A DNA stretch of 5,101 nt from a virus. Its lineage: Monodnaviria > Loebvirae > Hofneiviricota > Faserviricetes > Tubulavirales > Inoviridae. Position numbers and translations under genes: made by a program. The stretch lies in the IMG/VR virus record IMGVR_UViG_2698536355_000001; one strand, 5' to 3'. Position 1 is the first letter of the stretch; the number at the start of each line of letters is the position of its first letter. Positions 4,770 through 5,024 of this stretch are shown here, piece by piece. The notes beneath the pieces were generated by a model. The model saw nothing but the letters and a program-made list of their open reading frames with translations. It ran no database searches and was not told the DNA's origin.

Positions 4770-5024
4770 ATGACGGTTCATGTCGTAACAGGGAAATTAG
4801 GTTCAGGTAAGACACTGGTTAGTGTTGCCAGAATACAGGAAAGACTAGCTAAAGGCTGTCCTGTAGCCACTAATCTAGATATTAAACTACATAATATGCC
4901 CATGGTTGGTCGTTATGCGAAAAAAACACGCGTGATTCGTGTCCCTGACAAACCTTCATTAAATGATCTGCTGGCTATTGGTGTAGGCAATACTTCCGGT
5001 GATGCTGCCAACTTACTGATTTAG
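4770..5024 (+). pseudogene. gI: Assembly protein pI (Zot-like ATPase), truncated after codon 76 by IS1; the ORF reads 8 codons into IS1 before a TAG
   Basis: MTVHVVTGKLGSGKTLVSV... matches the M13 pI N-terminus (MAVYFVTGKLGSGKTLVSV...), Walker A included. Similarity continues to ...LLAIGVGNTS (M13 ...LLAIGRGNDS) and stops at 4997/4998, where the IS1 inverted repeat begins. The tail GDAANLLI* is encoded by IS1. The start follows the gene VI stop directly (TGAATG). Confidence 0.9.
4998..5020. repeat. IS1 terminal inverted repeat (IRL)
   Basis: GGTGATGCTGCCAACTTACTGAT; it pairs with the reverse complement of 68..90. Confidence 0.85.

Follow-up and report, generated by a model that had tools for sequence, protein, structure and literature searches.

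A contig from Escherichia coli carrying a filamentous prophage breaks off within gene I, in an ORF whose last codons are encoded by IS1. It raises the question of whether the prophage has really lost the rest of gene I, gene IV and its origin, as the initial annotation proposed, or whether it is only the sequence that stops there. The stretch of DNA that was analyzed (hereafter the window) is 5,101 nt long, and an exact-sequence match of the fusion ORF identified it as the entire contig CYAM01000110.1 (1-5101) of the E. coli draft assembly GCA_001284805.1. The identical contig is on record in 2 samples. This contig ends inside IS1 on both sides, with IS1 sequence at 1-90 and at 4998-5101. Short-read assemblers stop at multicopy repeats such as IS1, and the near-isogenic complete genome H1 (NZ_CP144928.1) contains 24 places matching the window, of which 2 are the prophage copies, which corresponds to ~22 IS1 copies. 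The window is thus a short-read contig bounded by a multicopy IS1, and the absence from it of gene IV, the packaging signal and the remainder of gene I reflects where assembly stopped rather than a demonstrated deletion. That gene IV is missing from the window is therefore true but biologically uninformative because the window is the whole contig. The conclusion that this element has lost these genes together with its origin, and for that reason cannot assemble or export virions, is not established by a contig that simply stops in IS1.

The junction itself could be defined to the base. The ORF at 4770-5024 encodes 84 residues, of which 76 are identical to the 364-aa pI of H1 and the last 8 come from IS1. 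Uninterrupted H1 reads across 4997/4998 as ...AATACTTCC|TATGATGAATCACG..., and the window after 4997 runs into |GGTGATGCTGCC, which is IS1 base 1. The terminal inverted repeat of the right IS1 begins with GGTGATGCTGCCAACTTACTGAT exactly at the junction, and 104 of the 104 nt that follow match complete 768-bp IS1 copies. A join at base 1 of the IS1 inverted repeat indicates transposition, as opposed to a chance or random chimera. Alignment with H1 thus bears out to the nucleotide the earlier placement of the IS1 cut at codon 76 of the pI gene (boundary 4997/4998), and the description of the product as 76 P-loop-containing residues followed by 8 IS1-encoded ones is equally exact. The left and right IS1 ends are in the same orientation. 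The features of the window are listed in Table 1.

Table 1. Features of the 5,101-nt window, with positions numbered from its first letter.
Feature	Position	Strand	Basis or remarks
IS1, last 90 nt, right inverted-repeat end	1..90	+	100% identical to IS1 679-768 in L001 (H1), L004 (GCA_977064715.1) and L006 (GCA_001285805.1)
Right copy of 8-bp target-site duplication CAATTTTT	91..98	.	Made by the left IS1
140-aa ORF, no assigned function, attL-proximal module	162..584	-	Exact in UTI89 and RS218 (ABE07213.1, AJM73688.1)
Hairpin block conserved with I2-2 intergenic region	626..662	+	Candidate pII-dependent replication origin element
XRE/HTH_3 regulator, divergent from gene II, in RstR-like repressor position	683..1129	-	Pfam HTH_3
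Gene II, replication initiator, 350 aa	1301..2353	+	Pfam Phage_CRI and G2P_X_C; 57% identical to I2-2 pII
Genes V, VII, IX and VIII	2365..3138	+	Putative_G5P, Inovirus_G7P_2, Phage_coatGP8; H1 RefSeq annotation
Gene III, attachment protein	3185..4428	+	Split; aligned to the intact 414-aa H1 gene
Gene VI, DUF5455/G6P, 113 aa	4428..4769	+	
Gene I (pI/Zot assembly ATPase), codons 1-76	4770..4997	+	100% identical to H1 and L004 pI; Pfam Zot
8 IS1-encoded codons GDAANLLI and TAG	4998..5024	+	End the chimeric 84-aa ORF; GenBank CTT59075.1
IS1, first 104 nt, left inverted-repeat end	4998..5101	+	100% identical to IS1 1-104 in L004 and L006

What is left of pI is recognizable as belonging to the Zot family, with a score of 42.6 bits against Pfam Zot PF05707 (cutoff 20.3) over profile positions 2-77 of 197, compared with 133 bits for full-length pI. 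The Walker A motif GKLGSGKT is kept in the stump at residues 8-15. Beyond the cut lie the Walker B motif LLVLDE (84-89), the only strongly hydrophobic span of the protein (~254-272) and Met241, which, from what is known of Ff gene I, we take to be the internal start yielding pXI. In Ff phages, pI is an ATP-dependent inner-membrane assembly protein that acts together with pXI and the pIV secretin. A functional pI combines Walker A, Walker B and a C-terminal membrane anchor, and only the first of these is present in the 84-aa ORF. Given the known requirements of Ff pI, a stump with Walker A alone would be nonfunctional, and we infer that the ORF is a fragment of a pI/Zot family member rather than a functional member. 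This copy of gene I is thus predicted to be dead, and the IS1 would also be polar on the genes downstream. In YpfPhi, disruption of morphogenesis/secretion genes abolishes particle production (PMC4266046).

The organization of the intact prophage is apparent from relatives. Between H1 and window 91..4997, there is a single SNP (3068) and a single 1-bp indel, and both IS1 insertions are absent from H1. The H1 prophage adjoins hipBA and consists of two tandem copies of a 9,078-bp unit (one at H1 2271049-2280126), which contains in order a 369-aa ORF (-), the 140-aa ORF (-), the HTH gene (-), genes II, V, VII, (IX), VIII, III (414 aa), VI, I (364 aa) and IV (421-aa secretin), an 82-aa ORF (hyp82) and an attP-like site. 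An even closer relative is the complete 4.87-Mb genome GCA_977064715.1 (L004), to which window 1..4997 is 100% identical. That genome carries two tandem copies of an IS1-bearing unit of 9,853 bp, in which pI (364 aa), pIV (421 aa) and hyp82 are all intact, and canonical dif follows. Gene IV, hyp82 and the rest of gene I are kept in all sequenced relatives, where the unit is often doubled in tandem. The canonical dif site GGTGCGCATAATGTATATTATGTTAAAT is found only at the right end of the array (L005 14733-14760, L010 11206), and an imperfect hybrid site, GGTGCGCATAATGTACGACTCGTTATGTTGAA, beginning GGTGCGCATAATGTACGAC..., is found at attL and at the copy-copy junction. Integration at dif is thus established in the relatives; the window itself contains no att site. 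By sequence comparison, the element is a dif-integrated prophage of the CUS-1/YpfPhi type, with structural and assembly genes related to those of IKe/I2-2.

IS1 was also found at this locus in a sister assembly from the same project (L006, contig CYBP01000067.1 of GCA_001285805.1), where the prophage IS1 at 6139-6906 is joined on its left to the cybB/gapC/aldA region. The flanks of this IS1 do not match and there is no duplication. A second IS1 left end lies in the same contig at 14725-14828, 8 bp before the attP core, and this contig and the window both end exactly 104 nt into IS1. These joins stem either from IS1 rearranging the DNA near dif or from an assembler scaffolding across the element.

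The IS1 at the left edge of the window has a history of its own. In L004, it is a complete 768-bp element with InsA/DDE_Tnp_IS1 ORFs that sits between the genes for the 369-aa and 140-aa proteins and is bordered by an 8-bp duplication of CAATTTTT (...GCAGCACAATTTTT|IS1|CAATTTTTCCATTG), a sequence that is present once in uninterrupted H1. The same junction is found in both tandem copies of that genome (L004 6139-6906 and 15992-16759). The left IS1 is a separate, older, lineage-wide simple insertion. The segment that follows it in the window (91..161) is native intergenic sequence. The initial annotation had correctly stated that 91..161 encodes no continuation of pI; using this as a test for the missing genes was misconceived since the left IS1 is an independent simple insertion into native intergenic DNA. 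We also considered an adjacent deletion by an IS1 located 8 kb upstream in H1 as the origin of the left IS1, which is ruled out by the 8-bp duplication in the closest lineage and by hipBA and the 369-aa gene being intact to its left. That upstream IS1 (L001 1-749) is identical, lies in the same orientation ~8 kb from the H1 prophage, beyond hipBA, and truncates a gene of the ECSE_1600 autotransporter family. A 9-mer of the IS1 right end, AGTAAGTTG (window 72-80), also occurs in the native prophage (L001 8981-8990), ~10 nt upstream of the left IS1 target site. A preference of IS1 for end-like sequences has been reported, and the native copy may reflect either such a preference or chance.

The window holds a second lesion that had been missed. 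A single base pair is deleted from gene III between 3642 and 3643, which breaks the gene into ORFs of 192 aa (3185-3763) and 157 aa (3955-4428). Both g3p fragments were found as exact matches, on 82 and 67 contigs, respectively, including the complete genome GCA_977064715.1, which shows that the frameshift is real and lineage-wide. In contrast, the pI-IS1 fusion protein was found on 1 contig only when exact matches were sought in a collection of ~15 billion proteins, so the junction in gene I arose recently and is peculiar to this isolate. The prophage was thus probably already non-infective or defective, through its gene III frameshift, before gene I was cut, and this frameshift is a better-supported ground for calling the prophage defective than the IS1 cut. 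The presence of both IS1 and the frameshift in the two tandem copies implies that the array was duplicated or re-integrated after the unit had been damaged.

The other phage genes encode a single-stranded DNA-binding protein (V), two minor coat proteins (VII and IX) and a major coat protein (VIII). H1 and the window differ by one substitution only (C vs. T at 3068), which lies in gene VIII and defines a distinct pVIII allele; in the CTS and CTU accession series, this allele is found together with the frameshift in gene III. The position of the HTH gene agrees with the organization of YpfPhi and CTX (PMC4266046). The 140-aa ORF has no Pfam match, and a promoter and terminator scan yielded only chance-level hits.

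We then asked where the origin and the packaging signal might lie by comparing the intergenic regions of I2-2 and IKe with the full prophage unit, which gave two real matches. One is between I2-2 2666-2716 and window 626-676 (52 nt, 85% identity, blastn E = 2e-9). Its core, GAACGTGCAGTGTTGGTAATACTGCACGTT, forms a perfect 13-bp hairpin (DNA fold, -16.2 kcal/mol, z = -4.4). Each prophage unit has one copy of this hairpin, as does I2-2, and in the prophage the repressor gene separates it from gene II. Because I2-2 carries the homologous pII, this hairpin, located within the window, is the strongest candidate for a pII-dependent origin element. The other match is between the end of gene IV together with the sequence just 3' of it and the annotated morphogenetic-signal region of I2-2. 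A long imperfect hairpin over the gene IV stop (L001 16042-16096, z = -3.4), outside the window, is likely to be the packaging signal. Noncoding conservation with I2-2 is limited to these two places. The initial annotation was therefore right to place the packaging signal outside the window and probably wrong in reporting the origin as missing, considering the I2-2-conserved hairpin block.

What, then, lies beyond the right IS1? Our preferred reading, which we consider reasonably probable, is that the gene I stump was made by a precise IS1 join in a dif prophage, that the gaps in the window are an assembly boundary and that the rest is most likely elsewhere in the genome. An IS1 end has been joined precisely to codon 76 of gene I in one isolate, and translation runs 8 codons into the IS1 inverted repeat and then stops. 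The rest of the prophage, gene IV and the 82-aa ORF at the least, would most likely be on another contig of the same genome, having persisted either through a simple insertion or through the tandem prophage copies of the lineage. Consistent with this, exact-sequence pIV (CTT51309.1) and hyp82 (CTT51329.1) are found in the same accession block as the window proteins (CTT58919-59075). In GenBank, the exact-sequence proteins of consecutive genes on one contig are ~15-30 accession numbers apart, and judging from this spacing, the orphan pair, which has no accompanying exact HTH, pII, pVIII, g3p or intact pI, looks like the complementary contig of this isolate. Gene IV and the associated DNA thus probably persist in this genome. 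A complete series in the same block (CTT58754-58921) was considered as a second prophage copy and rejected. Its pVIII allele differs, it includes neither form of g3p, its accession numbers overlap those of the window proteins, and an identical multi-kb repeat would not be expected to assemble twice; judging from the accession numbers, it most likely belongs to another isolate. The main rival is the reading of the initial annotation, a true deletion derivative in which gene I codons 77-364, gene IV, the packaging signal and hyp82 are lost, no assembly/export genes are left in the genome, and an IS1 insertion was followed by IS1-mediated adjacent deletion or IS1-IS1 recombination. After a simple insertion, the IS1 right end should be followed by a duplicate of AATACTTCC (or ATACTTCC) and then by TATGATGAATCACG. 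However, six modeled pI remnants (253 aa from TTG, 234 aa from ATG, 204, 171, 143 and 124 aa) are all absent from the protein collection, and a homology search with pI residues 77-364 found no ~100%-identity fragment traceable to this assembly. The missing remnants argue against a simple insertion and count in favor of a deletion. An intact tandem copy should, for its part, produce a branch at 4997, and the contig instead continues 104 nt into IS1, which again fits a deletion better than our preferred reading. The nonmatching flanks in L006 also count against the latter, as they indicate that IS1-mediated deletion or rearrangement happens at this locus in the lineage, and the same IS1 variant is present nearby, in the same orientation, in H1. 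Nevertheless, a deletion derivative leaves the orphan exact pIV and hyp82 pair in the same accession block unaccounted for, it departs from all sequenced relatives, which keep these genes, and a rightward deletion reaching another IS1 would remove dif (L005 14733-14760), at a cost to the cell. Moreover, no case for a deletion can be built on the window by itself, which is simply one complete contig. We therefore regard a true deletion as rather unlikely.

A different deletion could have occurred within a tandem array, with the left end of the IS1 in copy 2 attacking gene I of copy 1 and 4,178 bp being deleted. Everything from the remainder of gene I through gene IV, hyp82 and attP to the 369-aa gene would go, leaving the order IS1-segment-IS1-segment-geneI-geneIV-hyp82-dif, in which one intact gene I and one gene IV persist. 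Two-copy arrays with IS1 in each unit do exist in the lineage, and such an event would explain why the orphan pIV/hyp82 pair comes without an annotated intact pI and why the 253-aa and 234-aa remnants are missing, since the remnant would start further upstream, with Met43, Met45 and GTG55 as candidate starts that would give 322, 320 and 310 aa. The predicted orientation is seen at the new junction and at the independent L006 junction, but two matches out of two carry little weight, as chance alone would give them with p = 0.25. The event also predicts a 1:1 branch at 4997, where the contig runs on for 104 nt into IS1, and we find it unlikely. An assembly artifact, in which scaffolding or gap filling across repeats produced a chimeric contig end and gene I is really intact, appears very improbable. 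The sister assembly L006, from the same project, does join unrelated flanks across IS1, and the shared endpoint exactly 104 nt into IS1 hints at pipeline behavior. However, the join is exactly at IS1 base 1, only TGATG is common to the two sequences, after two mismatches, where a chimera needs overlap, and the identical contig exists in 2 samples. Finally, the IS1-flanked 4.9-kb segment still has the repressor, genes II and V and the I2-2-conserved hairpin, and it might therefore exist as a mini-replicon, amplified or circular, that would measure 5,675 bp once its two IS1 copies had recombined, or as a Tn9-like composite that can mobilize a replication module of filamentous-phage origin. The high copy number of such a replicon would explain why there is no branch at either IS1 junction; no observation requires this reading, which we consider very improbable.

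Taken together, these findings fit a familiar picture, in which a prophage of an established type is being eroded by an insertion sequence. Their significance beyond annotation hygiene is small, this being one more IS1-eroded prophage. They document an E. coli lineage with a CUS-1-like, IKe/I2-2-related dif prophage that has IS1 and a gene III frameshift in both copies and show that IS1 keeps making new junctions at this locus in individual isolates. They also offer a cautionary case, since a contig that starts and stops in a multicopy IS gives no basis for inferring deletions.

How does this locus compare with known systems? With its two direct IS1 ends flanking a 4.9-kb segment, the window resembles Tn9, which is a segment between two direct copies of IS1, and the IS1 is 768 bp long with canonical ends. 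In contrast to Tn9, the left junction is native to the lineage and found throughout it, the segment is collinear with the in-situ prophage, and the fusion ORF is on 1 contig. Neither the junctions nor the comparison of the segment with the lineage prophage gave any sign that the flanked segment transposes as a unit.

The resemblance to the Lineavirus phages IKe and I2-2 noted by the initial annotation holds at the protein level. The gene order II-V-VII-IX-VIII-III-VI-I-IV is shared with these phages (and with the Erwinia PEar phages), genes II, I and IV are homologous, and pI is 65% identical to that of IKe and 63% to that of I2-2. At the nucleotide level, the segment has no match among deposited phages by megablast. 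While pI matches both phages about equally, pII matches that of I2-2 (57%) but not that of IKe, which suggests that the replication and assembly modules may have different histories. IKe and I2-2 are also non-integrating phages of 6.7-6.9 kb, with no repressor, attL-side ORFs, hyp82 or attP, whereas the 9.1-kb prophage unit sits at dif and includes a repressor gene, additional ORFs and an attP site. Related modules are found on records deposited as plasmids (H31, H33 and H34): a 7,938-bp Salmonella "plasmid" with 82.5% identity over genes II to I, a 9,565-bp E. coli "plasmid" that carries a related phage module and a 248-kb Klebsiella plasmid with a 140-aa/HTH/II/V module of 91% identity. The small ones are probably replicative forms of related phages that were deposited as plasmids.

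The closest parallel is with CUS-1 of E. coli O18:K1:H7 and YpfPhi of Yersinia pestis. These prophages integrate at dif by a XerCD-dependent mechanism, with intact dif restored 3' and imperfect dif between the copies of 2-4-copy arrays, and they carry a regulator in the RstR position and, beside attL, two ORFs with no assigned function (PMC4266046). As seen in its relatives, our prophage shares with them the dif site by hipBA and its restoration on the 3' side, the tandem arrays, the HTH regulator divergent from gene II and the two attL-proximal ORFs, whose 140-aa and 369-aa products are exact matches to UTI89/RS218 proteins. Yet, O18:K1-type prophages such as that of UM146 show only ~84% nucleotide identity over ~80% of the segment. 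As judged by sequence from these O18:K1-type genomes, the window prophage is a related variant and not CUS-1 itself. It is set apart from CUS-1 and YpfPhi by the internal IS1 and the gene III frameshift of its lineage and, in this isolate, by a second IS1 junction.
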